Source: a virus (lineage: Duplodnaviria; Caudoviricetes). Taken from it: 64,000 nucleotides of DNA. The notes below the pieces were generated by a model that worked only from the letters and a program-made list of their open reading frames with translations, made no database searches and was not told where the DNA came from. The position numbers and the translations under genes are program-made. The stretch is from positions 96,001 to 160,000 of the IMG/VR virus record IMGVR_UViG_3300031867_000003, one strand, 5' to 3'. This document shows, piece by piece, positions 25,807 to 61,282 of this stretch (positions are counted from its first letter, which is position 1; every line of letters starts with the position of its first letter).

Positions 25807-28800
25807 TCAGTGTCCGGCTTTTCTCATATCTTTAGCTATTTCTTTGGTAGTATAGTTATAAATGTTCTTTTTAAATGATGCATTGCTCATTAATCCCTTG
25901 GCAATTTCTTCTAACTGTGGCACTATGGACTGATCCGCGTTGCCGTCAATTCGAATAAGATTGTCATAGTGGATGGTGATGTTCTGATTTGTGCTATGAT
26001 TAATATTATATTCCGGTGTCTGGAAGTTAGGTGTCTAGACAGGCACCATTCCAGATTTAGCCATAGCCATAAGGTTCTCCGTAAGGTCTGCCGGGATAAC
26101 TCCGTCTCCGGCTTTTAACGGCATTAACATTACACCACGACGGGTGATAATAGCTTCCGGACCCTTTTCGTTGATTTGATAAAGCCCCGGCTTCGCGGAT
26201 TTCGTTCCTTTCGCAAGACCGCCACTAAGATATTCTTCTCCTAGTTTACCGCCACTGAAATCACCGTTTATGAGTAATTGTCTAAACATGTCATTAAGAT
26301 CGCCGACCTGCTCGCTGATTTTTGTCGCCTCGGATTTCATAGCTTGCCAATAGTCGTATTCTTTTTGAGAAAGATTATCTTTATAAATGTCTAATTTCTT
26401 GCGTATATTACTGCTACTAAGATTAACTCCTTCAACATATTTATACTATACATCGAGATCTTCTCCGACCATCTATGGAACACCCATATTTTGTTCGCCC
26501 TAGAAGGCATCGGGGTGGAACGACTTAAGATAAGCATTAAAAGAAGCATTTACGTTACCAAGTGAAGCTTTAAGGTTAGTGGCAGAATCAACTACAAGTT
26601 GTGCCGCATGGTCAATATTTATAGATAAGTCTTTTACAAACTTCTCATAATTTTCTTGAAGTTTTGCTGAAAGATCGGTTAATCCGTCAATACGGAGATT
26701 TACTATATGATCTTTGACAGTGTCATCAAGTTCTTCTTGCATTTCCGCACGTTGTGCTTCAAGGCGAGCCTTTTGAGCACGGCTCTCGGCATCAGTTCAT
26801 TTATATTCACATGGTTCGCTACACCATGCCGTGTGAGATATAACCAATGGTATATCCACACTGCTCATGCTTTCACATGAGATTAGACTATATCATCTAT
26901 GGAAATTTTCCATAGTCTGTTGTTTCGAATTGCCAGCTTGCAATCCTACGTCCCTACACTCATCGGGACTAGTCGTTGAACGTTTCCTAGTATGTCTAGA
27001 ACTTCGCTGCTGATTGCCCAATATTTATCATTTTTAAACTATCGTAATTATTTATTATCACTGTAGTGATAAATCTCTAAGGGTTTCCCAGCAATTAAAC
27101 AGAATGCCCAATATAATTAGGCCATTTAGTGCGCGGATTTGCTGTTCGATAAGCTGCACATCTTTATTTTGCTTGCGTAGTTTCTTATCGTAATCGTACA
27201 TCTCTTTCTTTTTATTTATCTCATTTTTCCGGGCTTCAATAAGTTTGTTAATATAAGTAATTTCTGTTTGATACCTATCGGTTACATCCTTAATAATCAC
27301 CTGTCTCTGAGACGCGAGAGAAGTAATTACATCGCGAGATTGCGCTTCATATTCTTTCATTTTGGAGTTATATGTTTCTATATCAAGAGACGGATCTTCT
27401 CTTAACCGATTAGTAAGCACTTGTTGAGCTGTTCGAATTTTTGTAAACTAATCTTGTAGCATTTTATAGCTACGAACATCCATTGCGTATTTTGCAGTAC
27501 CAAGTTCAGTAAAGGTGCCGTCGGTCGTATACATCATTTCCGGAGAAATTGTTCCTTTGAGCTAATCTAAGGCTTTATGTACGGTGTCAATATTTTTAAT
27601 CATATCTTCCAAAGGTTTGAAATATACATCTTGCCTCATATCATCATATAAATTATTGATTTCTTCATCTAATTTATATACTTCTATATTAGCCTTTTGT
27701 ATATTTGCCATCATTGCTTTGTGCGCTTCGGAGTTCTCCAGAATTGTTCCGGCTTTAACATAGCTATCTAATAACTCCTGCTGGGCTTTCGCCTAATTTG
27801 CATATGCTTTTTGAGCGTCTTTTAATCGGTCGATTTGTCCTTCATAGTTGCTCTTCAAAAAGTCAATCGAAGAGTTCTTCTTGATAGTTGCTTTTCCGGA
27901 TTGATCATAAGAATAGCTAATTCCGTCAGTCAGTAATGTCGTGCGAGGTATATTGGTATTTCTGACGTATTCTCCGTCTTCATTCTTAGTAGCAATATAA
28001 TATCCTTTATCTACCGAATAAACAACTCTTGATTCACCGACTTTTTTTCCATTGGTCTTGAATGTCGGCTATGTGCTATTAAGTTGGTCGGGAGCAATAT
28101 AATATCCGCGTTCTTTCCATACTTTACGTATTTCTTCGCGGCGATCCGCCCAGGTTTTGGATAAATTAACGGCCGCTTGATACCAAGACTCGATATTATC
28201 CATCTTTTCCTATGCGATCTTTTGCTCGCGCTCTGCAACTTCAACCGCAGACTAAATGAGTTCTTCCCTCATTTTTTGCTCTTGTTCTCTGGCTTGACCG
28301 AGAGCGCCGGTAACATTTTCCAATGATGCCGTAGCATTATTCCATAACGCAACCGCCTCCCCAAGTTCGTTAGACACTCTTGTCGGATCTATTTTCCAAC
28401 CGTTATTTAAAGCTTTATTAATAAAATCTTTTTCTGATTTGGAAGCCTTTTTATACGCGTCATTGCTCAATATAGATTTCTTTGCTTTGTCGGATTCTTT
28501 TTTTAGCGAAGCCTATTGAGATGCAAACTGGGTTGTTATTTCCTATTGTTCCTCTATAGCGATCCGGCGCTTTTTCAATTCCTCTTTCAGCTAACGCATT
28601 TCCTTATCAATGTTTTCATTTTGCGCTATATAACTCGGCTTATTAAGAGAGCTTTCCATAAGTACATTAGCCTATCCATAAGAAGTGTCTTGTAAATTTT
28701 TCAATTCGTTTTTGTCGGCTCGGTTCTATTTTCTAGCGGCCTAATACGCTTTATCCGCACTATTCTTGGCGGTTTTGGCAGCTGCTTCTTTTTTGATTTT

Positions 28801-31800
28801 ATTATTGTAATCATCGACAAGCTTTTTGAAATAAGGCCCCCTATTTTTATTATATGGAATAAGTTCACCTTTTTTCATTGCGTTTAGTATTGAATTTTTA
28901 TCATTCTTCGAAACTTTTTTATTTGCTTTAAGATAATTTTCTAATTCAGTTTTGGATTTCTATGTTAAATCTTTGCGGCTTTCATATTTACTTTTGGCGT
29001 CATTATAATTCTATAACTTAGTGGCTCTGTCAGCTGTAGACTTAGCTACCACATCTTTCTATGCTTTTACCCCCGTGGCAAATTCTATCCAGCGCTGCGC
29101 AGACGCAATGCCGGATTTTCCGCCGGAAATTGCACTTGTTATTCCGGAAATAGTATTGATTCGGTTCTCAATTTTATCAAGCGCCTTCTCTAGCTTTTCG
29201 GTCGGTAGCTAGATAATCTGGCTCTGAAGATCTCTCATTGTATTCGCAAGTTCTTGTATCGCATTATTTGCGTCGCGAGATTTATTAATATAATCGAGAT
29301 ATGCGCGAGCGCCTTCAACAAAAGCGGCCTAATTAGGATTGGTCGTCTCTATTTGTTCAAGATTATATTTGCCTTCAAGTAAATCTTTTTGATTAAATTT
29401 GCTCCAGATATTTACTGTCTGTTTGTTTCCGTCTTTGTCCGTATAAACATAGGCTTTTGCTAATTCTTCGGCGAAATTTTTGTATGTCGTCGCGGCGCGA
29501 GAGTTGGCTTTAATTTCATTCTGGAGTGCGGTAACTTCGCTGCGAAGAAGTTTCCCCTTAGTTGCGTTGGTCACATAATCGGTAATCTTGTCGGCAATTT
29601 TCTTCGTTGCGTCAGCAAAATACTGAAGACGAAGTTCAACGTAATCGAATATTTCTTGGGAGAATTGAGGTTTATCGGCATTGTCATTGTTATTATTTCC
29701 GGCATTGTTGTTACCGCCACCACCGGTACTTGCTTGCTAATTGCCACTACCGACATTTACGTTGTTATTATTGCCGGTAACAGTTACTCCGGATTGCCCA
29801 CCACCGCCACCGGTCCATGTAAATGTTCCGCCGCCATTACCGGCATGAGCATTCATTCCATTAACTGTCCCTTTCGCAAATGCGGATGAGCCGCCAATTA
29901 TACGTGCGTGGCTAGATGTACGACCTTGTTTAAGAAGATCTTCCGTTTGTTTGTGATTAAATCATATATGTTTTTCTCAGTTCGCTACGCTGAGAAGGAA
30001 TTATTATAATTCCCTCATAGTTTCCTATGAGATCAGACTATATCATCTACTCAAATAGAAGAGTAGTTTACCGTTTCAAGGGTCAATAGCTTACCCCCTA
30101 CATGATAGTCGTTGAACCTTATTCTATTCGAATCTTGGCTGCTGATTACCAAATAATAATATTTTAAAAACTTTCACGATTATCTATATTTCATAATTTC
30201 GTTGTAGTTATTATTCTCTAATGGTTTTCCAGCAATTAGATAAATTTTTCAATGTATGTTGCCATACAAAGTCGCATAATTAATACGACGTCGCCCCTCT
30301 TAAGGTTTTCTATATGTGGTCCACCAGGAACGAGGAACCATTTGCCGTTTCTTATGATTGATTCCGTTCCCAATTCATTAATCAAGCTTTCTTGGTCTTT
30401 GTCTATTGCGATGTCACCTTTTGCATATCCACTCATATCTTTGTAGTTAAGCATATTATATGCGCTACCGGATTTTGCTACCTTGCCTTCTTCGTCAAAC
30501 GTGCCTTTTGCATAACCTCGCCCTATTGATGAGAGAGTACCAGAATATGAAGCAGCATTTTCTGCTTTACCAGGTTTATTAACTTTGCCAGGTTTATGCG
30601 AAGCACTAGAACTTGCACTCTAACTTGGCTTCACAACAGTACCAGTAACAGTAGCACTAACATGGGCACTAATACTAATGTTGGCAATCATAGCACGAAT
30701 TCTACTTACTGCACTTTGCGCAGCGCTTATTGCCCTATCTGCATTACCGTCAATTGTGATTCTGGCGGTTCTTCCATTCGCAGACGCAACCGCTTGATTA
30801 ATCGCACTAATTGCGCCAGAATTATTGCCATTAATGGTAATTCTACCGGAACTTGAGTTAGCATGAGAAACCGCAGTAGCTATTGAACTCATTGCCTAAG
30901 AGTTGTCTCCACCAATTGTAATTTTGGGGTTTGCATCTTCAACAGTGGAGACCACTTCTTCCACAGAAGAAATAGCCTACTCATTATTAGCCTAAATATT
31001 TATAGGTTCAGAGGCAGATGATTTGATATTATCAACCGCAGTTTGGATTGCCTAAACCTGTGAAAGAGCGCCGGAAGTTGTTATGTTTAATGCTATATTC
31101 TGGGCAGCAGCTTTAACTCTGTTAATTAACCCAGATAATGCACTAATCTAACCGGCTGCCTAACTGGTATTTGCAGTAGTTGTAACTGTTTCTGTTTTTG
31201 TTTGCGTCTAATCTTTATTTCCGCCAAATAAACCCGAAATAGCATTTTTTGCTTTTTGAATTACTTCAACTATAGTAACTTTTTTTGTCGCTGGTTTTTC
31301 CGCCTATGCTTGAATTTCATCCTAGCCGGTAGCTTCAAGTTTAACTTCCTTTGTGTACTCCTCGCCATTAATCGCAGCACTAACAGCTTCATTAATCCCC
31401 TAGAGAGAACCCTCGTCTAATTTGACGGGCATAGATATTTCTTTTCCGTCAATAGAATTAATCATTGCTTCGGCGGTTTCCACATCAGATGTATCTATGT
31501 CCAAAGTGGCGGAAAGAGTTCCATCATTCATCGATTGCTATAATTCTTCTAATGAACCGCCATCTTCAAGATACTGTTCTATTGCAACTCGCACGTTATA
31601 CTCCTGTTGGGTCTTTGCTTCAAGCTATTCAAGCTATGCAAGTGCTTCTTGTCCGCCTTCTTCTTCGACATTGATTTGCGCTTTCATTTCGGATATTTCA
31701 GCTAATTTATTCTAAAGTTCATCAACACTCATCGAAGCGGCATCGAATTGAGTAGCCCCCTCGAATTGAGTACCTTTAAATAATGCTTCAACCTTGTCGG

Positions 31801-34800
31801 TAGCAACAGTAGTACTATCACTGAATTGATTCATACTATTGATAGGTCCAGCAAAATCAATTACTCCAAGCGCCGCAAGAATCGGTACTAGCTGTTCAGC
31901 TTGGGCAGAAGATAAGCCAGCTGCTTGTGCAATACCCTCAAGGGCATCCTCAGCAGCTTCGAGTCCCTTAACATTATAGTCTCCATCTCCCAACTTAATC
32001 TATTTGAGCTCATCATACGATATGCCTTTAAGGGCGTCAGCATATTCCATAACCGCATCTTTCGCGTTCTGAATTTTGGTCTTACCGGCTTCGAATGCCG
32101 AAAACTCGGCGGTATTACGATCTATTCCAAATGCTTCAGCACCAAGAGGAGATTCCCACGAACCGATTTTGCCCTCAAGGTCTTTCATAGCAGATTCATA
32201 AGATGCTTCATCAACCTCGAAGTCGGCATTTACTTTGATACCATAATCATCGGCTAAATCTTGTGCTTCACGGAGAAAACGATTTGCACTTGCTTCATCG
32301 CCTCGCTCCATTGCATCATCATAATATGATTTAAGGTCTGCAATACTACTCTTGAGATTCTTAAGGTTGCTTACGTATTCCTATGCCTGTCCTCGCTAGA
32401 AATTTTGAGTAGCTGTCTGTACGGCATTCAGCTATCCTTGATACTGATCAATGACATCCTACTGAATCGCCAAATCATCGGCGCTTGCGCCTTCACGCTT
32501 CATTTCGGCATATTTAAGCTATGCATTGGTAAGTTCATTAGTCCATTTCTACGTCTGAAGTTGAGCGTCTTCAATAGAACTGACGAACGCACCCATTCCA
32601 CCATATTCCTCAGCTTTGCCAAACATGTCACGGAACCATTCTTCTCCGGCTCCAAATTGATGGGCGGCTTTAGCTAAATCGGTAAAGTTCATCACCAATC
32701 CTTGTGTGCCGTCTTCATATGTTTCAAGTGTCGCCATACCGGCACTCTGCAAATCCATCATGAATTTATGTACGCCCTAGATATCATCGGTCATATATTT
32801 AGAGAATTTATCATAGTTCTGTTTGAATCGTGTCGGATCGGATAAACCCCATTCGTCAAAGTAAGCTGCGCGGGTCTTGTAGTCGTCGGTGCCAATCAGA
32901 CCTTTATCCCACATTTCTTTAGCTTCTTTGAGATAATTCATTGCCTTATCATAATTTGCTCCTTGATTTACAGTTTGATCCGCAAGTGCAATTTGACCAT
33001 GCTGTGAGAATTGTTCCATAAGTTGCTGATAAGCGGCAAATACTTGTGATTGCTGTTGCTATAAATCCGCAAGTTCTTGCTTTAATTTGCTAATACCCGC
33101 AGTATTTATATCACCGCTGGCATTCTCCATACGGTTAAGGGCTTCGGTAGTTTGATTGATTTTTGTTGTTAAATCATTGTTAGATAATTCATATTCTTGT
33201 TGCGCGAGACGCTGTAATTCGACAACGTTCGCTTTAACGCCGTCGGTTGTATTATAGAATACACCGGATAAATCGGCAGAAGAACCTAAGTCGCTAAATG
33301 CGGTGGATATTGCTTTGATTGTATCCGGAGTAATACCGGTAGGAGTGGTCATTTCCGAGAATGCGGACTAAATAGCAGAAGAGAGGTCTTGCGCTTGAGT
33401 AAGTAATAAATTACGAGCTTGATCATCATAGCCATAGGCGTCAGCAAGTGCTTGCGCCATGGATGATTCGTTTTGGCGGATTTGGTTAAGTGTATCTTGG
33501 TATTCTTGTTTGTTGTTTCTAAGTGCAGGAAGTTGATTCCTCAATGCCCTGTTTTGGTCTGATAAATTCTTTGCTTGCTGTCTGGATAAAGTCGCAAGAT
33601 TTTTGTATTCTTTTTCGTTAGCTTTGATACCTTTTGCCTAATTTACGGTAATTTCGTCATTAATAGCAGAAGCCTAGTCCTAGATATTTGTCATCTAATT
33701 TTGTAATACATTAAGATGAGATTCTGCTTCATTATACATTGGAGAAGTGTATTTCTGGAGACCGGATATAACTTCTTCAGCATCTAATGCTTCCTAATAC
33801 ATGCTTGCTGACTACTCAAGGTCATATATATCTGATTTTGGATTCCCATATCTTTGAGCAAGATCAAGGGCCTCAGACATAATAGATTCCTAAATTCCAA
33901 TCTGTTCTTTTGCATTATTCGCCTATAACTTTGCAAGATTATGAGAAATATATTCTCCTCTGTTTTCAATATCGGTGCGTTCTTTTTGTAACTAATCTCC
34001 GTTAGCTTTGGAAGTGGCATAATCCGTTTTTAGATTATTTAAATCTGTTTGCGCATTTTCTTTTCTGGTTTCTATCATTTCTGTTTCCGTGCTTGAAATA
34101 TTTGCTATAGCCTCTCTATAATCAGCTAATGCTTTATCATATGCTACCTAATCACGTCTATCAGCCGCTTCATTCATCCTTCCAAGTGCGGTATTGGCCT
34201 TATCGTGATATGCCTAAATATCTGATTCATATAATGGCATGACACTATTATTAAGTTCTTCCTCAGTTAAACGTTCGCCTTTTGCTTGACGGTTCTCATT
34301 TCTTGCATTTATTAAGTTTCGCTTTTGTTCATTTTTCTCTAAAACAGCTTCAGCCTCACGATCTTTAATAATCAAATCCCATTCAATCTTTTTATGATTA
34401 TACTCAGCTAAAATTTGCTATAATGTTGATTCTGCCGTAATCGTACCATCAAGCGTCAGTTCCCAAAGAACATTATAATCAAGTTCTTCGCCATTCTATG
34501 AGAGAGCAGTTAATACATCATTATATTTCTATTCGTTAAGATGAGAACCTGTCTAATCTGTATATGAAAACGTTTCTTTTAAACTGTTTTTTGCTGTTTC
34601 GGCAGAAACAGTAAGGTTATCATAAGATTCAATTAAATTATCAATATACGCCTGTGATGCCCTTGTGGCTTCCGGTGTGAGTGGACCTTTGTCTGCCTAT
34701 ACTTTTTTAAACTCTTTGATATATTCAGACAACTATTTAACCGCAGCGTTATTAATGCCTTCAAATGAAAAATCGTCCATACTTGGCATAGCATCTTGCA

Positions 34801-37800
34801 AATTTTTCATTTCTTCTGCTGTAAGTTTACCGTTTTCACGGTAAGACTCTAGTGCATTATTCAGTGATGATAAATTAGATTCATACTGTGATGCACTTTT
34901 GGAAAAATCTTCGTCATTGAGAATATCCGCAAGAGTACCGGTTCCGGCTTCTTCTTTAATCTAGGATAACTGGTTCAAATATTCTCTGAGGGATTCAATT
35001 GTATTGCCAACAAAATTAAAGTTTTGATTGTTCATCGCTGTCTGGGCAATTCTTTGTTCTTTTTGCGTTAAACTCTGTATGTCATCCCAAGATATCTTGC
35101 TTTTGCCTTGTTTATAGACATTTTTACCATTAGCATCTTGAGTTACCTCGCCTCCAAGTCTTTTGAATATGGCAGCTCGAGTGTCAGTAGCGTTCCAGTG
35201 GTAATCACCATTTTCATCCTCATATTTGTATTCAAGACCAACAAGAATTGTTTGCTTTATTTTATAATTTTCAGTTCCTTCGCCACCTGGGAAAATCGTA
35301 TTTAACACACCATTAATCTGATCTCTCATTTCTTTATTGGTGGCGTCATCAAATTCAAAATTAAAAATTTTAGATAAAGCTTCTTTTGATACGTCTCCGT
35401 TGCTAACAGCTTGTTCTATCGGCGCAAGTATTCTATTTTTAATATCATCATCAAAACTTTCGCTATTAGAACCTAACTGTTCATATAATGTATCATAATC
35501 GATATTATATAACTAAGATAAAATACTATCCGTTAAATCTTCGCCGAGATGTAAAAAGTTAGGATCTGTCTTTAAAGTCGAAATTAAATTAGGAACAAAT
35601 CCAGTCGCCCAATTTGCCGACTTCTAAACATTGGCAGACTTTATAGTATCTTGTGCTCTTTCTATATAACCATTAAGAATGTTCTGGTACCCGTCCATAG
35701 AACTAGATAACTAGTTTAAATCGTCCTATGTTAACTTAAATGTTATTTTTTCACCCTAATCTCCGTGGCTATAATAACCATAATCTACCCCAAGACTGCT
35801 CAGTACATTTTCTAGCGCGGATCTGGCCCCGGAACTTGTAGGAGCATCCCACACTTTTGACCCAGTAGAATTTATCTCTGCAATCTTATTCTGTATTTCT
35901 TGTACCTATGATATCTGTTTTTCCGCACCGGCAATTTCGTCGTCATAGTTTTTGTTTCCTTCAACGATTCCTTTAACTATACCAGGCATTTGTTTTTCAA
36001 TTTCATTTGCTTTTATTTTATTCTGTGCTTCAATTAATTCATTTAATTTATCTGTTGCCTATTGAGCATTTTCCCCTAAGTCAACCAAAGACTATCCGCT
36101 ATCTGTTACTCCTGTTTTTAAGGATGGAAATGTATCCGCGAGCTATTGATTGATTGCCAAAAACTCCTCATAATCTTCTGTTGAGAGTGAGAGATTTTTA
36201 ATTTGATTTCCTCTCATATAAACACCGGAACGAAGTTCATTATAACGTTTTCTAGCGTTTTCGCCAACTTCATTAACAGCGGTCATTTCTTCTCTTGCTT
36301 TTCTAGCTTCTCCCTATGCCGCTAATCCTTTATTTATTTTGTTTTCTCTATAATGTGCTAGATAATTAATCCCTTCGATCCCTTTACCAATCGCAGCCGT
36401 AATAGCCATAGAAATTGCACCTGTTGCAAGACCGGAGATAGCAGTTAAACCAACGTCTTTAATGAATGAGGTAGCTATACCCTTAAATGTTGCTTTCTCA
36501 TTAAGTGCCTTTTTAAAATCATCAACAAGCATACCTTTGCCGCCACGTTCTGCAATGCCGGCGATTATGTCTTGCGCTTCATCCTTAGCATTTGATAAAC
36601 CGGTCTGCCTAACATCTCTTACTCCATCCCAGCCAAAAAGCTATCCGACGGTAGTAGCATTTCTATTTCCAGCTATTCTTTTATTAAGCCATTCAATTGC
36701 ATCTTCCTTTGGTTGCGTGTTAAATAATGCGTTCTTAAGACTTTTAAAAAATCCCCCATTAGTAGAATCAAATCTAGTTTTCATATCCTTAAAGATATGT
36801 CCAAATTCCCAATCCCCCATACCGTTTTTACGGAATAATCCGTTTCCGGTAAACTGAAGAAATCCGCCGATTCCGGCTCCAAGAATTCCACTAAGGCCGC
36901 CGAATGCGTCTACTAACTACGTAACTACTTCAACGGCAGAAGTGCCGAGTTCAATGATATCTTTAAGCCATTCACTGTCAATTGTTACTGTTGCCAGTTG
37001 TTGTAAACTATTTTGAAGCTGTGCCATTTTTCCTTCTACAGAATCAAGATATGTGTTAAGCTCGTTTTGTGCCGATCCTTGTGAGTTCATTAAAGAGTCT
37101 TGATAGACATCTTTTAATAGCTGTGGATTTGATAATAGGCTACTTGCTGCTGCTGCACGCGTTTTTCCTCAATTATGTTAAACATGGTTCACAACACCAT
37201 GTGATTCGTAATAAACGAATCTCTTACACTTTCATGCAAGTTCTGACCATTTCTTCACCCTCAGCATCATCTGTTAGGGGCATACCTTTTCGGCGTACCA
37301 TAAGTTTGTACCCTACGATTATTCATAATCTGGTCGATGAACGTTCGCCAATATATATATCCAAAATATACATACAGGCGCTTCGATGCAAGAACAGCCA
37401 ATCTTTATGTTATAAAACCATCATAATATATTTTCATTATTATTGTGGTATAAAGCTCTAAGGCATTACCTGCAATTAGATATGTTCTTTATATATATTT
37501 CTATATATTGTGGCAAGCCGTTTGCCACCGTTTCAAGTAATAGCGACTATCTATTAGTGCCCAGTTTCTTATCTTCCTCACCAATTTCCTTAAATACCTC
37601 AGCGATACCGAGCATACGTTCGTATGTTGTTTTGTAAGTACCGTCGTCATTCAGTATATCAAAACCTTTATATCCGTTTGATTGCACCTTTGTTGCGTCA
37701 AGAATCGTTTGTCGCAGTTTCGATTGTGTAGTAATTAAACCATCGATTTCTTCGCCGGCTTCTTGCATGTCTTCTACGGAAGTGCCGCTCAATCTCAGTG

Positions 37801-40800
37801 AGATTGTCTTAAGGGATTGGCCAACCGTGAGAGGATCTTGAAGGACGGCATTTGCAGCAGTAGTAAGAGCCACAGCTTCGTCAAATGAATCCGATCATGT
37901 TAAAGATAGTTCGCAACGCTATCTTAATTTATTGATAAACAATTATCAATCTTTATCTATCAATAAATTCTTTACCTTTCGGCAAAGTCCCGACTATTTC
38001 TTCACCCTCACCATTACGTGGAGGGGCATACCTTTTCCAATTCCATTTGCGATTGAATTGTACAATTAGTCTGTGAACGTTTATCTTCAATTAAAAAGAT
38101 ACTTCGCTGCGCGATCTACCAATTCTTATTTTTTAAGACTATCATAAACAATTGCTTGCTTATTGTAGTAATAAGACTCTAAGGTTTTACCCGCAATTAG
38201 ATATGTTCTTATAATATATTTCTATATTATCGGGCAATTGTTTTTACCCGTTACTTGTAATGTACCAGCAGATTTCTGAAGTGACTCAGCTAACTCTGAC
38301 GTACTGATTGCGTAGTTATTGCCTACGTAGTTTAACTTATCGATGATTTCCGATTTATCAAGATCTTTATACGCTTGGCTCATTGCAGTTAATGATTCAG
38401 TTGCAGCATTAATGTCTTGGAATTCCGACACATTAAGAAGTACAGTTGACAATTCCGCACTTTTTTGTGCCTACTCAAACGACTCGCCCAGTCTTAACCA
38501 ATCCGCAGTACTTTCTTGAATTTGTTTAGACGTTGTCCCGACGCGATCGGCAGCCTCAAAGCTTCCGTGTTGTGCAAAATCTTTAAGAACACTAAGTGGC
38601 TCGTCAGACACTTTTCGCATTTCCGTGAGGGCAGTGTCAAGTTCTCTGACGATATTTACTCCTTGCTTGGCAATATTGATTACTTCATACAAATCCGCGT
38701 ATGTAAGTAAATATCTCGCCATTCCCTTGAACGAACCTTTAAGAGTCTCACCAAATGATTTGCCGACATCTCCGGCTTCCGTAGCCTAGGTTTTTATCCG
38801 CTCAAATGCTGCGGCGATTTCATCAAGATTACCGGCGGACGCACCATTTATTGCGTCTTGAAGGTTTTGAATTTGTGGGAAGTATTCAGTGGCAGCGGAA
38901 TTTTTATACATCCACTCTGACATACGGCGATTGAGAGTAGCAGCATCTTTTTCGTCGGCGGGAGAGTAATACCCTCCACTAGATCGTTGAACTACGTCAT
39001 TCAATCTGCCTCTAAAAGATAATACCTAAGCCTAAATCTAGTCACGTCTATCGGGGGTGGCTTTTTCATATTCCCCAGATATTTTAACCAAATTTTCAAA
39101 CTCTTCGTTTAAATCATGCAGAACGTTTACTCCATCTTCATTCCAGTTTCCATTGCCTAATTTTTGAAGAACTTCACCCATTTCCTCAAGGCTGTCGGTA
39201 AATGCAGACGTCTGCGCCTCATTCATAGTGTCATCAAATTGTTGTCTTAATTGTTTTAACGCATCCGATGCCTCACCTTGTGCGGTGACGAAAAGTCCAG
39301 TTTTATTTATCGCATTTTCATAAAAAGTTCCATATCTGTTTAAAAACGCCTATTCAGAATAATCCAACATCTATCCGTTTCTCTGCTTTTCATTAATTTG
39401 CGCATAACGCTCTGCATACTTAATAAGTGTTTGATATCCACGCTCAACATTTTCAAATTCATAATTCTCATTATCATTAAATGCGGACATCCCTGATTTT
39501 AAAACGTCCACATCTGCCATTTTTTGTCTATAAGTATCAAGAGCCGCATTAGGAACAGTCCCATCGTTTCTCTAATTCAATTTGTCAAGCGATTCATATG
39601 CTTTTTCTGCTTCCTCGCGATACTTTTCCATTGTTTTTATCGCCTGTTGTAGCTAATTGGCGCTTATCTCTCCAAGATTAAACATATCCTATGCATTAGA
39701 GGCTCGCTTTGCGGCATCATAGTATTGCTATATTTTACCGGCCTATTCACCGACATATTTAGATTCAGTAGCCTCCCATTCCTTTGCCAATCTGGCATCA
39801 TGTGAGGCAATAGCTCTATCTAAATCATCTCTGGATTTATAAGAACCATCTTTCGAAGTTACCCATTTGTCTAAAGCAGAGTCTGTCTATTCCTATGTAA
39901 TTTTCGATGCTTCCTTAAATTCATATATTTTTTCTATCGCTTCGTCCGCAGCTTCTGCTGTATCTTCCATCATTCTGACAATAGAACTTTTTACATTGTC
40001 CGGAATCACTTGCCCTTTTGCCTCATCTGTCAACATTTTATTATACGTATCTCTAGCTTCAATTGCCCTTTTTATTATATTAATTTGCTCTTCATATTCA
40101 TCCTTATTCTTTTTATTCACTGCAGCTGTTTTTTTATCCTAGGATTGTGCGGAGCCATTTTGAGCAGCTTCCCACGCTTTTATCCCTTCTTGATATTGCT
40201 CATCTGTAATATCATCTTTTATAGCCTCTAATTCACGCTTCGCGTCAGCAGCTTCTTGATATGCTTTTGTTAATCTAGAAACGGCCTCAGCCCATTCTTG
40301 TGTTTGTTTAATTTCAGGATTAGACTCGGCTTTTGCCTCTAGCTCATTCATTTTAGTTCTAGCGTTAAATAATTCTTTAAATTTATCAGTTTGTTCTTTA
40401 TAAAAATCACTAATCGTTTTATTTCGTTTTTTATTATCATCAGCTTGTGCCTTACCCTATGCCTCATAACGCTTACGCCCCATATTATATTCAGTGTTAC
40501 GCGCTTTTTGATATTGCTATTCTTCCATAGCGATTGCCATAGCATCTGATTTTTGACCTTCATATTCAGCATTTACATCCTTAAAACGTTGTTGAATAGA
40601 TCTTAATTTATTATTAAATTCCTCTAGGTCTTTGGATTTAAGATTGGAGCCGATATTTTTTTCAAGATCACTCAATTCTTTTTCTAAATCTGAGGTATCT
40701 ACATTAGACTTCTACATCTTACGCATGGTATTATGTATATCAGTAGTTAATTTATCTTTGGCAGCTGTTATGCTATATGGATTAAACTGAGTGTTTGCCT

Positions 40801-43800
40801 TTTGATTTTTTATAGCCTACTGCGCCGTTATTTTATATTCATTAATCGCAGCCCCTAGCTGTTCCTTTACTGTTTTCGGCATTTCTTGCCCAGCGTATTT
40901 ATCAAAGAAATCTTCGAATATTTTATTATACAAATTAGTAAGCTTTGTATCGTCCTCACTTGAAAAAGTTACTCCCGCATTATCTATATATTTCGCTTTT
41001 ATATTTTTAAGATTGCCCTTTTGCCTAGCAATAAGAGCATCGGTATTTTCAATGGATTTATTTCGCTTTTCGTTTTGTCTAAATTCTATTTCTTCATTTC
41101 TCTATTGTAACTTCGCCTAAACAATATCCGCAGACTCCTTTGCCCTTCTCTCGAAATCTTTTTTCTAATCTTGTCCAGGTTTATTATCAGCGCTATCGTA
41201 ATATCCATATAATTCATCGGTCATTCTCTGAAGCATATCATAGTATAATCCAAGTTCGTTTTGCATTGCGTCGGTGTTTTTACCTTGTTTTTCGGCATTT
41301 TTAATATTATTATCCAGCGTAAGCACTTTGTTTTGCATGCTTATTACTTGTTTTTCAAGGCTTTCATAAGTATTGTCTGTTTTAACCGATTCAAACTCAT
41401 TACCATCCTCATCGCGTATAATTCTAGTGGTTGCCTTTTCTCCATAGCCTAATCGCATAGTATAGGACGTTCTTTCGCCGTTTACTTTTGTTTCCCCAAT
41501 ATACGTACCTTTTCGATTATCAGAAGTATCACCTTGCTGAGTTACCTCAGATATAGCATCTGAATTTCTCTCAGCAGCTTTACCTTCATTATCAAGGCCT
41601 TTTGTCGCTTTCTTTGTGGCGTCAGCCGTCTTTTCACCAGATTCAGCAACTTTTCGGTTAGCCTCTTCAAATTTCTTCTTTTTTATCTCCGAAACCTCGG
41701 CAGCGTCACCCTCATTTTTTATTTCCTTAGTGGCGTCCCGAAGCGGTTTAGCTCCATCAGTTGTGTTTTTCGTAATTTTTACCGAAGACTCAGATAATAA
41801 TTCATTTAAATGTTGTTGATCATCAACTGATTTTTTAATATAACTTAGAAAATCATCTTTGCTAGATGGTGGATTAGATAAATATTCGTAAAGCTATGAC
41901 AATGCACCCTATGTATTAGTAGAAGTATCAAAGATGTGTCCAAAAGACTCATTTATCTCTTCCAAAAATGATATCGCATCTGAACCTTTTTTAGTTGATA
42001 AAGTACCAATACCAATAGTTCCAAGAATGTTGTTCCAGTCATCACCAAATTCTTCTCGGTCACTTTTAGAGATTCGTATTTTATTAGATGATACAAAACT
42101 TCTAATTTGTTTCCATAAATTCATATCGCCATATGATTCAATTACTCCGCTATCCCTAGAAAGAATATCAAACAGATTATCATAAGTTGGTGTTTCACCG
42201 TTTGCGGTTTCAACCAAAAGATTTCGAACTTCATTTTTTAATTGTCCAAATATTTTAGTGGACTTCACACCGAATTCATCACGAATGGCAGACGCTACCC
42301 TAGTTGTTTCTTTTTCTAAGTTTTGTTCATCAATTATAATATCGTCTATAGGCGACTCACTGGGTATACTTTTATCCCACATATTAGATATTTCATTAAA
42401 AGTATATCCAAGTTCTTTTGCTTTAGAATTAAATTGATCTATCGCGTCTGTAAACGGAAGATTTTTTTCTGTAACCTAAAATTCCAAGTCGTCTACTATA
42501 GACTACAAACTTTTTGGAGCCAACTTGGTCATATTTTCAAATTTCTAATGCGGCAAAATATCCTCGCCATTTTGTGAAATCTTCTTCCAGGATCCAGATA
42601 TTTCATCAAAAGCATATCCAACTGACTCGGCAAATTTTCTAACGGCCTCTTCACCTTTAATAGACTCCTTGGTTATTTGATCTAAGAAAGCACCATATCC
42701 GTCCGGAAGTTCATCCTCCGCCATTCCCATAGCATCTAAAATAGGCTATGTTCCCTCTGTGAATTTCAATATTTCACCATTTACACGACCATTTCTTTCA
42801 CGTTCGGCTACAAGTTCTTCCTATCTTTGAGCTATATGAGATTTAAACTCATCCATTGCCGCATCATATTCTTTTTGCCCAGTAGCAACGTCGGCTATTA
42901 GCTGATTTACAAAATCTTGATTTGCATCAGAATATCCCTCTATGGAGCGGATATCTTTTCCAAATGTTCGACGTCTGTCGTCTGGGACGGCAACTGGTGA
43001 AACTGGAGCCCCATCAGAATCTCCAGCTTTATGATTTTCATCATCTATAGCATCGGCTGCCTCTTCAATCTTTTCTGCCGTTTCTTTCCCAGATTCAGCA
43101 ACTTTTTCTTTATTTACTTTCGCGAATTCTTCTTTATATGGGATTGCCTCTTTGGCGGACTCGCCCTCGGTTTTTATTGCGTTTGCACCTTCGCGGAGAG
43201 AAGATAAGTCAATAGAAGATATGGTAGACTGAAATGTTGTGATAGATTTATTTAACTCATCAAAATTACCGGCAATGCTTTCCCAATTAATATTTGATAA
43301 TATAGAATCGTTACCACCTAAACTAAAAGCGTTCTATATAGCCTCTCCCATTTTTTCGGCGTTCTCAGCAACTTTCTGCATTGTTTCGTTAAGTTGCTCA
43401 AGAAATGATGGCGCTTTTGCGTCTTTCGGAAGAAGCCCCTTTGACATTACATTATGCAAATTGCCTATTGCATCTGTAAATAATTGGATTTGTTGTGTGT
43501 ATTCTTTTACGGAATCGGATTGCCCAATTTCATCATCAGCTTTTATTCTGGTCTAACTCAACGTTTCAAGTAACTGGTCTTTTAACTTCTGTTTATCTTC
43601 AGGAGACTTTGTAATTTCTGCCTTTTCACGAATTCTTTTACTTATATATTTGAAATCCGTTGCCGGAAAATTTGATTCCAACATTTGATCCCAAAATGAG
43701 TTTTCCCCTTTTCCGACACTTTCAGCGGTTCTCTATATAGAAGAGATGAATGCCATTATTTGTTTAATCTGGGTCTTTGAATCTGGTAATAGTTTAATTC

Positions 43801-45619
43801 TATCTGGATTAAACTATTCAACGAATTCCTAAACATTAGGGAACGCTTCCAAAAACCCGGAACTTCTTGGTGACTATGCCATAATATTTGCTAAAAGCTA
43901 TATATCACTAACATCTCCACCAAGCATACCTTCATCTTTTAATGATAATTTATATTTGTTTACGACGTCTAATATATTTTTATATGCTGCCTAATATCTT
44001 TCAGCCTAATTTAACCATTCTGTTTCTATATTTGCCTCAATTGCTGCGTCCGCTACATCGTCTTTAACATGCACATTAAACTATTGTTCTTTTCTTGATG
44101 TGGCTCTCGAAAAATCCCACATTTCTCTATTAAGTTGCAATAATGATTTCTGATTATTTCTAGCTTTTTGGTTAGTACCTTCTCCAAATCTACCTATAGC
44201 ATCAGATACCTAATTAACCACAGATAACAAAGACTAAAACTAACTAATTAACGGTTCTATTCCAGCGTCTGTATCTATTTGACCAAATGCAGAACTAATA
44301 TTTGTTATTTCCGTATTTAAATTTTCTAGTGTATTAATCAACTATTGAATATTTTCCGTATTCCAAGACGTAGAATCACCACTTGTAGCATGAATTTCTG
44401 AAGACATTTTTTCTTTTTTTTTATTAATATTTTCTATATGTTCCTCGGTATCATTTAAAGCCTATTCCGTTTCATCTATATTTGGCATTTTTATTTTTGA
44501 AAAATCAAAATCATTAATAGCCTATTTAATATCATTAAGTGCATTTTTAAGTTCATTTAATGCGTTTGTTGCGGAAGTTATTTGTCCCTCATCAATTTTA
44601 AATGTTAGTCCATTACCATCTTCTCCGAGAGCATCTAGGGACTACGAGACTTTATCTATAATATTTTGAAATTTCTAAAACGTTCCGTCATCTTGAAATG
44701 CTTTCTTAATTTTGCCAATAGAATCGGCTACGCCGGATTCGGTCTCATCTTCAACTCTATCAGCCATCTGTTTGGATGCCTCTAACTCCCTCTCAAGTTC
44801 TGCTCGCTGCTATTTTAATGACTTAACCTAGGACTTATTTATTTCATCTGGATTTCTTCCAAGATTCTATAAATTTTTATTTCTAACATCAACCAGTCTA
44901 GCCTATATGTCTTTATAGTTTTCAAACACGCCGGAATCTTTAATTATTCTGTTATCGGGGTTTAGAGCAGTTCTTAATTTTTTAGTAATATCAAATATTA
45001 TTTGAGAAAAATCTTTATCGTCAAACCCTATTAACTAACTCAAGTCTCCGCCTTGACCCAAATATTTAAATAAATTATCAATATAACCACGCAAATCACT
45101 TGCATTTTCCTTAGAAAATAGCCCGTCCAATTGAACATTTGATGTAGCAAGCTATTGTATCTTTCTATATCCTTGACTATTAGAATCAAGTAAATCTCTT
45201 TGTATTTTCCTAAAATTATTTTTTGCCTAGTTAGCATTTTTAATTTGTTGATTTATGTTATCAATATCAAAACCGATTACTTCCTCTGGTCTAACAGTTG
45301 TTTTTCCGGCTATCTGATTAACGGTTCTTCCAACATTTTCTAAATTGCTCTATACTTCTCGAAGAGAATTGCTAAGTTCGTCCATCCCTGCAACATTTAA
45401 ACCAAATAAATCTTCGCCGTTCTATCCTTTATACATCTTTGTTACATTTTTAATCGCGGATTCAATGTCCTTAATTGAGTCTAATATTTTTGATGTATCT
45501 ATATCTGCATTAAATTTAATTGGTTTTTTAGCTCTTCTTTCCAATTCGTCTATTTTTTTAGTGCCACTATCATCAACTTCAACTTTCAACGGCACAATCA
45601 CGGTTTCAGTTTCTTTCAT
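25807..45619 (-). CDS. Giant tape measure protein, about 6153 aa after splicing. Exons 45619-38246, 37891-37524, 37169-30285, 29962-27119, 26797-25807
   Basis: The tape-measure fragments of the ORF track fall in frames consistent with this exon structure; TMP core motifs (ELDTALTEMRKV, IIDKLNYVGNNYAIST, GQSLKTISLRL); dense in-frame TAG; exon sum 18462 nt is divisible by 3. Confidence 0.85.
26798..27118 (-). ncRNA. Group I intron D in the tape measure gene (321 nt, ORF-less)
   Basis: P1 GCCU/AA..UUGGGC with U.G pair; core AAUUGCUGGGAAA, AAUCAGCAGC, GUUCAACGACUA, GAUAUAGUCU; terminal G; splicing restores ALNGL-TDAESRAQKARLE. Confidence 0.88.
29963..30284 (-). ncRNA. Group I intron C in the tape measure gene (322 nt, ORF-less)
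   Basis: P1 GUCGU/AU..AUGCGAC; full core motifs; terminal G; splicing restores LKRGDVV-FNHKQTEDLL and explains the frame change. Confidence 0.9.
37170..37523 (-). ncRNA. Group I intron B in the tape measure gene (354 nt, ORF-less, C-G at the 5' splice site)
   Basis: P1 GUGGC/AA..UUGCCAC; core AAUUGCAGGUAA, GUUCAUCGACCA, AAAUGGUCAG; splicing restores LLETVA-GKTRAAAASSLL. Confidence 0.82.
37892..38245 (-). ncRNA. Group I intron A in the tape measure gene (354 nt, ORF-less)
   Basis: P1 CGGGU/AA..UUGCCCG; core AAUUGCGGGUAA, GUUCACAGACUA, AAAUAGUCGG; splicing restores LQVTG-DSFDEAVALTTAAN. Confidence 0.88.
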
Positions 45620-50727: not shown

Positions 50728-50758
50728 AGATAATAAAAAATACCTATGACAGTATTAT

Positions 50759-50830: not shown

Positions 50831-51008
50831 AACAGATCACTCCCTTCTCATAAAATTTAACTTTCATCAACCAAATAATATTCTATGGTTAATGGTATTA
50901 CCACAAATTCCGTATTAGTTTGGAAATCTTCCATATAATGCGTTTTGCGCCGCCCAGTGGCCACCAGTGCGTTTGCTAGTGGCCACCCGGCGTTGCCAGT
51001 GGCCGGGG

Positions 51009-53368: not shown

Positions 53369-53703
53369 AGGCTACCTCCTAATAAGAATCTCCATCGCTA
53401 TAGGTGGGCGTTCTCATTATAGGAGATAACGGTATTCAAAACTCAATAAACCCGGCCACTCGCTCCGCTCCGTGGCCACTTACGGCCGCATAAGCGGCCA
53501 CTGGGATCCGCCGTATGCAATATAATTCATAAGCACTATATCTGCGATATCTTTATCATATGTTTTAGTAGCCAATTCAATATTAGTTACAATTTCCCAT
53601 TTATGGTCATGTAATGAACGTAGATATACAGTTTTTCCTTCTGCATCAATGGAGGCTATTACATATTTATTTATAGTTTTTTCCAATTGCTTTCTCATAA
53701 TAT

Positions 53704-54837: not shown

Positions 54838-54847
54838 AGTATTCTCC

Positions 54848-55084
54848 TTACGTAAGTTCATGCTTACACCATAAATCAAAATATTTCTTGCTCTGCTCCC
54901 GATTAAAAATAAAACATAATATCGGGTCTCCTGTGTTAAAATCCACGCTTATATACAAATCAAGAAGTTCACATCCATGTTTTAAATATAAAGTGGCTTG
55001 TCTTACATTAACTATGCGGACGCCGTCCTATGGATAATAATCTTTTCCCGTTATATCTGAATGAATATCATTAATGTCTCTCAT
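54848..55084 (-). CDS. Hypothetical protein (78 aa, one TAG)
   Basis: AAAGG RBS; MRDINDIHSDITGKDYYP*DGVRIVN...FDLWCKHELT; missed by the ORF track. Confidence 0.7.
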
Positions 55085-55879: not shown

Positions 55880-57098
55880 TTATTCGTCTTCCTCGTCATC
55901 TTCAACAACATAGATGCTATAAAGTCTCTTATCAGCGTCGCAGTAAGAAACCTGAAGCTGTCCATTAAAGTCGATAGTTTGGTTGTCGGAACTCAGTGAC
56001 ACTTCGCTTTCCGGCGATACCTGGAAGGACGGAATGTCGATATATGCTGCACGAAGTGTATCTGCGGAGCAAGGATCGACACAAAGAACCTTGAGAATAA
56101 GACGGATAGTTCCCGGGAACTTATCAGCTTTATTAATCATCTCAACAGCACCAGCTGTTGCGGCTGTGCCGTCAAGTTCACGATCATAACGAATCATGTA
56201 CTGAGTATAATCGTTGCTAAGCGGAAGAGTAAGAACTCCCGTCCCATCATCATAAGTAAACGTAGAAGCTGTAGCACTACCACCAGTCTGGAATGCAGTA
56301 CCAAGAGTACCGTTGTTCTCCATGCCATATACCTTCGGAGTGCCGGTTACATATTTAAGAGTAACTGTCGGACCATTAGATGCCTTAGCAATTGTGATAC
56401 CAGGTGCGGTAATTTTATGATTTGCAGTAGCCTCAATTTTACCGGAACCCGCTTCAGAACCAAGAATATTAAGATTAATGAAAGCGTTAGTTGCGGTAAA
56501 CTCACCAGTTTTTGCTCTCCAGAAACGTTTCACGAGGTTGCCGTCTTTATCGGTAACATCATTAGATTCTGCGGTAATATTAAGAGTAGCTTCCTAAAGC
56601 TAGGTGAGTGTATAGAGAACGTTGCCGTCAAAGTCTTCAGCAGTTGCGACCTGGATACGGTCAATAATCAAATCCTAGTTTTCTTAAAAAGAAAAATGTT
56701 CACATGGGGTCGCTAGTCCCATGTAGTTCTCAAATGAACTTCTTATTGTTTCCAATAAGTACAGACTATATCTTATTCTACAGCATTACCTGTTTAGACC
56801 TAACCATTTCGAGAGTCAATAGCTTACTCCCTACTTTCTCTTATGAGAAATAGTCGTTGAACCTTACCTTACGGTCTTGGCTGCTGATTGCCCATTGTTA
56901 ACGGTACTTAGGATTTAACCATATACCATATAGTAATTTTTTTCTACTTTCGTAGCTCTCACGTATATATCTATTAGATATTGCGTTGTAGCTTCACTAT
57001 CTTTAGGGGTTCCCAGCAATTAGATTAGTTATTATAATTATGACATATACATATTTCTATATATGCTGACTAGATTATTAATCAAGCTTGAATGCCAT
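55880..57098 (-). CDS. Major tail tube protein (270 aa after splicing; exons 57098-57081 and 56674-55880)
   Basis: AAAGGAG RBS; spliced MAFKLD-DLIIDRIQVATAEDFDGNVLYTLT*L*EATLNITAES...; position after neck genes; followed by a GC-rich hairpin. Confidence 0.8.
56675..57080 (-). ncRNA. Group I intron in the tail tube gene (406 nt, ORF-less)
   Basis: P1 UGAU/UA..UAGUCA; core AAUUGCUGGGAA, AAUCAGCAGCC, GGUUCAACGACUA, GAUAUAGUCUG; terminal G. Confidence 0.9.
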
Positions 57099-58545: not shown

Positions 58546-61282
58546 TTACAACGCAATGATTTCAATTGGCAACGAAGCAATTATATCTTCGCCGTCAACT
58601 TTATATGTTACAGTAAGTATTTTGCCGATATACGAATCGTCTCCCAAGAACTTAACCTTAACATGATTATCTATTACAGATAACGTCAGCAATTCTTGTG
58701 GAACAGAATTCCCGTCTATAGAAAATTCCCAAGTACCGGGAAGTGTATCTATCGACGTACCGTCTTCGTCGGCAAATACCACGGTGAATGTTTTGGCAGA
58801 GCCGCCTATACGAATCTGCTGTTTACCTGAGCATGTAATTGTAGTAGTGGTAGTGGGAGTTGGGATAATATCATCTACCGGAACAGCCGGAGTAGGTTCT
58901 ACTTCACTAGCTTTCCAATCCGCCCACCAAGCAACTACATTGCCATCAACATCATAATCAGCTTTAAGTGTATGTTGATTAGCAAGATCTTGCGCACAAG
59001 TAAAAATCGCAATTCCTTTAGAATTTGAACGATTTATTTTACTAATCTAAAATACGCGAGGTTCTGTTAATACGTTGGCATCTATCACCAAGTAAGTGTT
59101 ATAATATAAATGTTCCGTATCACGATTTAACGGAAGACAGAACTAGGTCTAGTCTTCTGGTTGCTAAAATTTATACATATACGTTACTTTATCAAGTCGT
59201 TAATTTGATAAAGAATTATTTAATTCATTTAAAAAAGCCAAATACTTAGAATGTTTTCTTTCTAAATATCTATTCGCATCATAGTATAACCAATCCATGA
59301 TTTTTATTACATTCTTTTTGCTTAATGTTTGAAGAACGGATGTAATATCATTTTCCTCTGGATGAGCGAGTTGAAGACTTAAATTTACACCTAATTTATT
59401 TTGAAATATTTTATTAACACTATTACAAAAATCAAATGTAGATATTATCTTAAATCCACACCTTAAAAGCCCATTATCTTGAAACGTATAAAAACTTCCG
59501 TCCCCGTCAAAATAACCCCTTATAAAATGTGAATGTAAAAAATCTGGAATGTCTGGGAACGTCAACATCAAACTTTTGTTTTGAACCATTCCTTGCTCTA
59601 CTAAAGAATTTGATAAATGTTTACTTGATAGTTCTAAGCATATCTATGGTTTAACATTATCAGCTTTTATTAATCTATCTCCAATATACGAATCTCTTTT
59701 AATAATTTGTCGCAGTGGTCTATTAGATCCTATATCTTCACTAAATTTTTCTATTATTTCACGATCATCAATTTGTAAGTCTAAATGTATCGCATTCCTA
59801 GGAACATTATTACAACCATCCGCATACAATAATCCCAAGTAATATGCCTTATCTTGGGTATCTATTATATCAAAATACTCTTCATTTAATGAATATTTTC
59901 TACGACCAGGATTCTTTATTCCTAGATTAATAAATAATTCAGATATAAATCTCTAGCTAACATTATTTTCTTCAGATAATTTTTTAATAGATTTCCCAGA
60001 CTTATATTCATCGATATGGTTATCAATATTCTCCAAAAACAATTTTCTATTGTATTTTGCATCTTTATTATACATATAATTAATCCTCCTTCAAAAGATA
60101 TAATGTATGCTATAATAAAAACAGTAATTTTTATGTTGAAGGCATAAAAAAACGGTTTGCAACCCGCTGTCCTGTTTTTATTCAAAATGATTAAATAATT
60201 TTTCTTATACTTTCATATAAGATCGGACTATATCTTTAACCGCAATTGCGGTTACTTCCCACTGGACTTACTTGAGCCACTTAGTCTCTGAACTTTACCC
60301 TCATCAAGTCTTAGCTGCTGATTATCCAATATAATATATTTTTTGACTATCACGCTTAGATGTATCTCATTATTACGTTGTAGTTATACTATCTCTAAGG
60401 AAGTTCCAGCAATTCAAGAAGTTTTCATCGTATTATTACTAATACGTGCGACTATTTCTAATCGAGCCATAATCCACTCATTATGTTATCATAAGGCTTT
60501 TTATCCTTATCTCTTACTGTCGCCAGTAAGATCAGCATATGTTTTCTCCATATCATTAACTTGACTTAGGAGTCGGACACTCGTGGGAATATTATATTTA
60601 TTCAATTCCTATGCGTTACAATACTTCGCAGCCTTTCGCTATCTGCGAAGTTATCTCGGCGTTGTCTACGAGAGAGTTCCACCGATTTTGCCCGATTTTC
60701 ACTCATAAGTTTCCTTATAAGGCAACAATTTTTATTGTAAGAATTTTGGCTCCTGCTGACCCCAGGGAACTCATAATATTTCCCATCTTTAATCCAGCGG
60801 AACACTTCGTCACAACGAAGTACTTCCCAAGTCGGAAACATATTTTCATCCCGGTCAGCTGTAGCAACCACTAACCATCTACGGTATATGTCATCTTCTC
60901 CCTTTAGCCAAACATAAAGACCAACTGGATATCTAGCTCTATACCGCTTACCAAACACTTCTTCGTAATAATCAACACCGCACTCATGACCTGGTCTAAA
61001 CTAAATATGCATAGTCTATTCATCTTTTTGAAATGTCTTAGAACTATGTGCAATAAATTTCACATCTATAGGGGTTGGATTTGTATCCTCTTCCGGGTTA
61101 AATCCTTCAAGACGAAGTCTATTCTGCGGCGCGGTATGGTAGTAATCGAAGAAATATCCAACCTAATACTAAACATCCTATGCAAACGTAGCATCCATGA
61201 TTACATCACTTTGCTACTTCCTCGCCCTCCCCGGTACACTAATATTATTGTGCATTGCCTAAAAATCTCTGTAGGTAATCAT
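58546..61282 (-). CDS. Putative head-closure/neck protein (398 aa after splicing; exons 61282-60734, 60478-60461, 59175-58546)
   Basis: Spliced GVSRSQNSYN-SGLWLD-YKF*QPED*T*FCLPLNRDTE; many TAGs; exon lengths 549+18+630. Confidence 0.78.
59200..60075 (-). CDS. Intron-encoded double-motif LAGLIDADG homing endonuclease (291 aa, two TAG=Gln)
   Basis: KAYYLGLLYADG and FIRGYFDGDG motifs in one frame; AAGGAGG RBS. Confidence 0.88.
60085..60182 (-). promoter_or_regulatory. Structured leader RNA (three-way junction with anti-RBS loop) before the LAGLIDADG ORF
   Basis: Outer stem AAUAAAAACAG/CUGUUUUUAUU, hairpin GCGG-GUUGCAAA-CCGU, hairpin UUUUUAUG-CCUUCAA-CAUAAAAA; loop is complementary to UUGAAGG of the RBS. 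Confidence 0.65.
60479..60733 (-). ncRNA. Compact group I intron (255 nt, ORF-less, different subtype)
   Basis: P1 CAAU/AA-AAA-UUGUUG; core AAAUCGGUGGAA, AACGCCGAG, GUAACGCAUA, CAUAUGCUG; terminal G before SGLWLD. Confidence 0.82.

Follow-up and report, generated by a model that had tools for sequence, protein, structure and literature searches.

The td, nrdB and nrdD (sunY) genes of phage T4, which belong to nucleotide metabolism, carry group I introns with endonucleases of the GIY-YIG or HNH type, and the endonuclease open reading frame (ORF) of sunY lies downstream of the ribozyme core, near the intron's 3′ end. Virion genes also serve as hosts. In prophages of the Bacillus cereus group, such introns occupy three sites in the tape measure gene (TMP-IVS1, TMP-IVS2 and TMP-IVS3), the terminase gene (term-IVS) and the tail tube gene, and sister introns differ mainly in P1, the helix formed with the upstream exon (Tourasse & Kolsto 2008; PMC2504315). 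Cluster J mycobacteriophages have group I introns in capsid and tail genes of some genomes only, and their splicing was proven by reverse transcription polymerase chain reaction (Pope et al. 2013; PMC3706429). Delta and Zeta crAss-like phages combine up to 14 introns per genome with recoding of TAG or TGA, and their major capsid gene can be in five pieces (Yutin et al. 2021; PMC7886860). In addition, phages named “Agate” contain a recoded homing endonuclease within a group I intron (Borges et al. preprint; doi 10.1101/2021.08.26.457843). Here we describe seven intervening sequences, I1 to I7, in the genes for the tail tape measure protein, the tail tube protein and a neck-like protein of an uncultivated phage. 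The stretch analysed (hereafter the window) has 64,000 nucleotides and comprises bases 96001-160000 of a 202,175-bp metagenome-assembled IMG/VR record, IMGVR_UViG_3300031867_000003. Judged from sequence comparisons, it is highly probable that all seven are genuine group I introns, and that they are mobile selfish elements at conserved sites, not regulators.

Introns were searched for with the Rfam covariance model RF00028 (Intron_gpI), which has a gathering score of 50 bits. Seven matches were obtained, all on the minus strand. Five of them, with 61.2 to 84.5 bits and E-values from 4e-13 to 4.5e-20, were above the gathering score: I1 (26864-27128, 74.8 bits), I2 (30014-30294, 84.5 bits), I4 (37970-38255, 70.1 bits), I5 (56742-57093, 61.2 bits) and I6 (60204-60481, 80.6 bits). 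The matches for I3 (37223-37533, 42.9 bits, E-value 1.3e-7) and I7 (60513-60744, 33.0 bits, E-value 1.2e-4) were below it. The covariance model thus bore out the first-pass annotation, which had proposed seven group I introns in this region, for five copies and left two under the threshold. A profile made from the seven introns recovered the same seven and none further in the whole 202-kb genome; I7, the most diverged copy, still matched it with an E-value of 3e-32. The model alignments were full-length (positions 1-253) and included the core from P3 to P8 with the guanosine-binding helix P7. This helix was GACUA/UAGUC in five copies, GACCA/UGGUC in I3, a compensatory change, and GCAUA/UAUGC in I7, a double compensatory change. 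Because the Rfam model scores the P7 pseudoknot as sequence only, much of the score deficit of I3 and I7 is explained. An insertion between P3′ and P7 suggests subgroup IA.

The final 4-5 nt of each 5′ exon, which differ from intron to intron, were complementary to the guide sequence of the adjoining intron, giving a P1 helix in seven of seven copies. Examples are CGGGU/GCCCG with U.G in I4 (5′ exon ending in ...ACGGGU, intron 3′ end ...AUCG), GUCGU/GCGAC in I2 and CGAU/GUCG with U.G in I6. A U.G pair at the 5′ splice site is near-universal in group I introns, and it was found here in six of the seven, five times in the automatic best register. In I7 it was seen only by eye in an alternative 4-bp register (CAAU/GUUG), the automatic register giving U-A. 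In I3, the last exon base (window position 37524) is C, so P1 has a C-G pair in place of the wobble. A 5′ splice site 3 nt upstream in I3, after a U and also in frame, was rejected; it would drop one residue from a block without indel in three intron-less relatives and disrupt the 7-bp P1 helix. All seven introns end in G (omega-G) at junctions set by intron-less alleles. Beyond the end of the model, most introns have a conserved hairpin (loop GUAGCGAA or a variant) followed by an AACAU...G motif; this extra 3′ hairpin was not seen in I7.

These features also bear on the idea that at least one copy, either the diverged I7 or I3 with its C at -1, has lost the ability to self-splice, so that the tape measure or neck gene of this assembly would be a pseudogene or a protein cofactor in trans would be needed. 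The scores of the two copies under 50 bits and the C-G pair where U.G is almost universal speak for such a loss. However, P7 is kept by compensatory changes in both introns, both end in G, and the exon frames stay intact, free of TAA and TGA, over all 6,153 codons. Furthermore, the closest relative (genome G001) conserves both I7 and I3, the latter with the identical C before the 5′ splice site (contig L001), and the record is 100% complete according to CheckV. We therefore give this explanation a slim chance.

Junctions were placed by comparing the window with related IMG/VR contigs, L001-L011 among them. Some relatives may come from the sheep rumen, to judge by the names of their contigs. 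A search for related loci with tape measure exon 4 found none, and the alleles for I1 and I2 came from neighbouring contig stretches. At least one related contig provided an uninterrupted allele for each intron, so each junction could be placed to the nucleotide, and the proposed alignment to intron-less homologues agreed with all seven sites. In the following, the symbol ^ marks a junction and all introns are on the minus strand. I1 (27118..26798, 321 nt) is lacking in L008 (G001) and L011 (G003), and L008 is nucleotide-identical over the predicted join ...AAATGGCCT^AACTGATG... of the window. I2 (30284..29963, 322 nt) is lacking in the same two contigs, which align over GDVV^FNHKQ with no indel. 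For I3 (37523..37170, 354 nt), L002-L004 are uninterrupted and read ETIAGKTR, where the window is predicted to encode ETVA^GKTR. For I4 (38245..37892, 354 nt), the alleles are in L001-L004, and L001 reads ...CAAGTTACAGGC^GATTCATTT..., that is QVTG^DSFDEA. I5 (57080..56675, 406 nt), which has an in-frame TAA directly after its 5′ splice site, is lacking in L005, L006 and L007 (junction MAFKLD^DLIIDRI). I6 (60460..59176, 1285 nt) is lacking in L006 and L007, and I7 (60733..60479, 255 nt) is lacking in L006 and present in L007. The Rfam model stops at the P9 hairpin, and the real 3′ ends therefore lie 34-70 nt further, and about 1 kb further in I6.

Only I6 has an ORF of note. Its core occupies the first ~330 nt; from there to the 3′ splice site, a 3′ extension contains an ORF of 291 aa (59200..60075, minus strand) with two in-frame TAG codons and a GGAGG ribosome-binding site. 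The product matched the endonuclease family phrog_4645 (E-value 1.7e-51) and PF14528 (23.9 bits against a cut-off of 22.5) and has two LAGLIDADG motifs, LLYADG and YFDGDG; it is a predicted double-motif LAGLIDADG homing endonuclease. The longest sense ORFs of the other six introns have 34-60 aa and gave zero family matches, in agreement with the earlier statement that six introns lack an ORF. Two antisense ORFs in or near introns (130 aa, 37069-37461; 131 aa, 36462-36857) also had no family match and were set aside.

The interrupted genes are legible only if TAG is read as sense. Under the standard code, the minus strand consists of short broken ORFs; with TAG as sense, it is tightly packed with genes of up to 2,497 aa. 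In two well-sampled virion protein families, glutamine was the commonest residue in 8 of 13 TAG columns, and at each of two near-invariant TAG columns it was present in 38 of 39 sequences. In the tape measure protein, residues facing TAG shared their polar profile with residues facing CAA or CAG. TAG is thus very probably translated as glutamine.

Four introns, I1 to I4, are in the tape measure gene (25807..45619, minus strand; exons 45619..38246, 37891..37524, 37169..30285, 29962..27119 and 26797..25807). Their removal gives one frame of 18,462 nt that encodes 6,153 aa with 134 in-frame TAG codons and a single terminal stop. The gene matched the PHROG tape measure families phrog_4211 and phrog_8892, and minor tail protein genes are located downstream. 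The PF10145 (PhageMin_Tail) domain is split by I4; it scored 34.1 bits on exon 1 of the window and 65.2 bits when whole across the same site in the intron-less contig L002. These matches identify the predicted 6,153-residue product as a tail tape measure protein. By the rule of thumb of 1.5 Å of tail length per tape measure residue, a ruler of this size would imply a tail of about 0.9 µm.

The tail tube gene (55880..57098, minus strand) is interrupted by I5 after only six codons (MAFKLD); exon 1 is 57098..57081 and exon 2 is 56674..55880. The spliced frame has 270 aa and a single stop. Pfam gave no family for the tube and neck exons of the window. The AlphaFold model of the 270-aa protein (pLDDT 94.3) matched tail tube proteins in Foldseek, with 8xkn_B at an E-value of 9e-14 (TM 0.67/0.74) and further matches to 8ygm_A and to the tube proteins of YSD1, Chi and JBD30. 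The predicted structure is therefore that of a tail tube fold. Homologues of the tube protein are full-length, uninterrupted and start at residue 1; together with those of the 401-aa protein described next, they number in the hundreds.

I7 and I6 are in a gene (58546..61291, minus strand; exons 61291..60734, 60478..60461 and 59175..58546) in which an 18-nt mini-exon between the two introns encodes SGLWLD. Removal of both gives 401 aa with a single stop, and the 214 homologues of this protein are mostly uninterrupted with ~395 aa. The protein has a C-terminal Ig-like domain (residues 293-396). Its best matches in BFVD were predicted siphovirus proteins named “Head closure knob” (E-value 2.4e-19, TM 0.44/0.51). 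In searches of the Protein Data Bank (PDB), the C-terminal Ig domain filled the list and the N-terminal domain was not resolved; a match to lambda gpV (E-value 4.6e-6, TM 0.18/0.27) was not taken as evidence for a tube protein. The gene sits between capsid-side genes and the tube gene, which is consistent with a neck role. From these predicted structures, the assignment as a head-closure (neck)-like virion protein is reasonable but not proven. Hence the distribution proposed at first, with four introns in the tape measure, one in the tail tube and two in a neck gene, stands as to sites, restored frames and the identity of the first two genes; for the third gene, the head-closure likeness stood and the identity as a neck protein is not established.

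The virion module to which these genes belong resembles that of Bacillus phage SPbeta, and the phage is probably siphovirus-like. On a contig of a relative, a tube orthologue matching PF27173 (YomU_Tube) in precomputed Pfam annotation adjoins genes of the YonB and YomW families, and the presence of all three together suggests an SPbeta-like module. A megablast search with the tape measure region yielded, among GenBank phages, a single 45-nt match at chance level. A tblastn search with the 401-aa protein gave zero matches in GenBank phages, indicating that an annotated close relative is absent there.

From these observations, we propose that three late virion genes of a phage recoded from TAG to glutamine were invaded by seven group I introns that are related to one another. 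Once transcribed, each intron would fold, and P1 would arise by pairing of its guide sequence with the end of the exon that precedes it. Attack of an external guanosine on the 5′ splice site would follow, and then ligation of the exons past the intron's terminal G. The mRNAs so formed would be translated into the 6,153-aa tape measure, 270-aa tube and 401-aa head-closure-like proteins, all of which would need TAG to be read as glutamine. Self-splicing in vivo and homing are the parts of this scheme that we infer. At the level of the sequence, it is true that tail production requires both intron removal and TAG as a sense codon, as the first-pass annotation had stated.

The distribution of the introns among relatives is informative on their nature. 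G001 has ~87-96% nucleotide identity to this genome in most flanking exon stretches. It is without I1, I2, I4, I5 and I6, retains I3 and I7, and carries introns at other sites, including an upstream gene and a position only 4 nt past I3. The intron next to I3 forms with it a pair of back-to-back tape measure introns (L001:6341-7200) separated by the 4-nt exon AGGT. With this spacing, AGGT must act twice, as 3′ exon for the first intron and as P1 substrate for the second. G001 also has an I5-like intron of group I at L007:702-1059 (67.3 bits with RF00028), some 1.5 kb upstream of the stretch aligned to window position 62991. It corresponds to a gene just past the end of the window, where this genome gave no intron match. 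The contigs of the more distant relatives G002-G005 have no interruption at any of the seven sites that they cover, and all have in-frame TAG. Of 120 clusters listed as homologues of the 401-aa protein, 20 were half-length proteins broken at residues ~180-189, which suggests that both sites of this gene are often occupied in nature. The intron sites are in the most conserved stretches of the host genes: I4 is inside PF10145, and the two joins in the invariant motif SYN^SGLWLD^Y are those of I7 and I6. Since TAG as sense is retained in every relative examined, amber decoding is the conserved feature and the introns are a variable overlay.

The same comparisons leave almost no room for an assembly artefact, in which repeated intron-like sequence would have been mis-stitched into the contig. 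The record is indeed a metagenome-assembled viral contig. The seven copies, however, have diverged to a mean column identity of ~50%, the guide of each fits its own exon, and independent contigs of other samples carry homologous introns at identical sites. We regard this possibility as negligible.

Some points weigh against the view of seven genuine, mobile introns. An endonuclease is present in only one of the seven, which bears on how the six ORF-less copies spread. I3 and I7 are under the Rfam gathering score, and a C in place of U at the 5′ splice site, as in I3, lowers the activity of the ribozymes studied. Splicing itself is read here from the sequence for all seven introns.

The first-pass annotation had suggested that splicing and amber decoding form a double post-transcriptional gate on late expression, that is, that selection keeps the introns as a second control which, with amber suppression, times or throttles tail production. 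Consistent with this suggestion, all seven protein-gene introns are in the late virion module, and the machinery of recoding itself is connected to splicing. The only tRNA with a CUA anticodon (amber suppressor) lies outside the window on the minus strand (G000:C1:164685-165002; L015:2686-3003) and was not detected by plain ARAGORN. It has a long variable arm, and its anticodon loop is split (CUCU^...^AAA) by a 231-nt intron with a weak RF00028 match (29.7 bits), a P1 of CUCU/GGAG with U.G and a final G. The code switch and the three virion mRNAs would therefore share the same chemistry. The unpaired 1:72 position and G73 may be the cause of charging of this tRNA with glutamine. In addition, the endonuclease ORF of I6, with its two TAG codons, would be made only after suppression starts. 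Past the 5′ splice site, the first in-frame stop is TAG in both I4 and I6. With suppression, ribosomes would read 120 nt into I4 (38245-38126) versus 24 nt under the standard code, and 36 nt into I6 (60460-60425) versus 3 nt, so coupling of translation and splicing is possible.

Against a gate, relatives that share the recoding do not conserve the introns at these sites: five are lacking in G001 and none interrupts the covered sites of G002-G005. Intron sites that vary between relatives are characteristic of mobile elements. We found no sign that splicing is regulated, and the B. cereus prophage and Cluster J cases with the same pattern were read as selfish mobility (PMC2504315, PMC3706429). 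The gate thus did not survive the comparison with relatives, and we consider it quite unlikely. The split tRNA(CUA) and the TAG-first reading of I4 and I6 nevertheless keep a small probability of a coordinated role alive. In its most specific form, group I splicing would have been co-opted as a common control point for tRNA(CUA) and the tape measure, tube and neck mRNAs through their shared guanosine-dependent chemistry, to which we give only a low likelihood. If true, one physiological variable, the supply of GTP or Mg2+ or else the ribosome traffic once TAG is sense, would set both the code switch and the tail yield.

A second class-II tRNA, also outside the window (G000:C1:11553-11952, plus strand; L014:2554-2953), was found by ARAGORN -i; the group I-like intron that interrupts it has 314 nt (RF00028, 37 bits). 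By analogy with tRNA(CUA), joining would give a UAA anticodon (Leu) interrupted between U34 and A35, the classic position of the cyanobacterial tRNA-Leu intron. The two tRNA introns are alike and are dissimilar to the seven introns of the virion genes. Weak tRNA-like matches at genome positions 12087-12168 and 14050-14141 were rejected as suppressors because of abnormal anticodon or D regions.

Mobile introns, the interpretation that we favour, have much in common with those already described. As in the B. cereus-group prophages, the introns are in tape measure and tail tube genes with several sites per tape measure gene, sister introns have a P1 or guide adapted to each site, the most conserved part of the gene is hit, the endonuclease gene is lost from most copies, and presence varies among related phages. 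The present case differs by four introns in one gene, compared with one or two there, by a tape measure about five times longer (6,153 aa versus >1,200), by 134 TAG sense codons in the exons, and by its host, a 202-kb uncultivated virus and not a prophage. As in Cluster J, the hosts are late virion genes of a large siphovirus, only some related genomes carry the introns, and U precedes the 5′ splice site and G ends the intron. One Cluster J intron has a homing endonuclease and one does not; here I6 has one and the others do not. Splicing was shown in Cluster J and is predicted here, and those phages have the standard code and far fewer introns. A high intron density, a virion gene cut into several pieces, introns and stop reassignment in the same genes, and a recoded intron endonuclease are shared with crAss-like and other recoded gut phages. 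The length of 202 kb and the TAG recoding are compatible with the ~201-kb “Sapphire” clade of the preprint (doi 10.1101/2021.08.26.457843), which is a candidate affiliation. Unlike the crAss-like phages, this lineage has an SPbeta-like siphovirus virion module, and six of its seven introns have no ORF, whereas crAss-like introns were found through their protein domains. The T4 introns likewise have peripheral extensions, and the ORF of I6 is downstream of the core as in sunY; unlike in T4, the host genes here encode virion proteins and the endonuclease is of the LAGLIDADG type. The novelty implied at first does not hold, given tail-gene introns reported in 2008 (PMC2504315), shown to be spliced in 2013 (PMC3706429) and found along with recoding in 2021 (PMC7886860).

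Other features near the virion module were also recorded. One is a nearly TAG-free island of ORFs (window 48435-54879), located between the tube gene and the tape measure gene. It encodes a tyrosine integrase (48435-49439) and a transposase (51752-53395, phrog_1157), the latter overlapped by a 248-aa ORF, as well as a 391-aa protein of phrog_12787. The G+C content of the island reaches 0.46 at 52-54 kb, compared with ~0.35 in the flanks. In appearance it is mobile DNA in the standard code, such as an insertion sequence. A 374-aa ORF with eight TAG codons (46627-47751, minus strand) matched endonuclease and Holliday-junction-resolvase PHROG families, and the tail module may thereby include a homing endonuclease of the free-standing kind. 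In the head-side virion module, a TAG-free gene (62093-62776, minus strand) encodes a 227-aa protein with an IF2_N domain (PF04760, E-value 1.1e-11).

Introns in tail genes, and introns together with recoding, have thus been described before, and this locus is a rather extreme and well-resolved case of both. Standard annotation, with genetic code 11 and no intron model, would leave three core structural genes in over a dozen pieces. The introns provide natural test material for guide retargeting among sister introns, for short exons between introns (18 nt here and 4 nt in the relative) and for a C-G pair at the splice site. The picture of phage gene regulation would be unchanged unless the introns prove to be rate-limiting. 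What the locus illustrates is how far mobile introns may load essential virion genes, in a setting where a natural intron-less allele fixes every junction.

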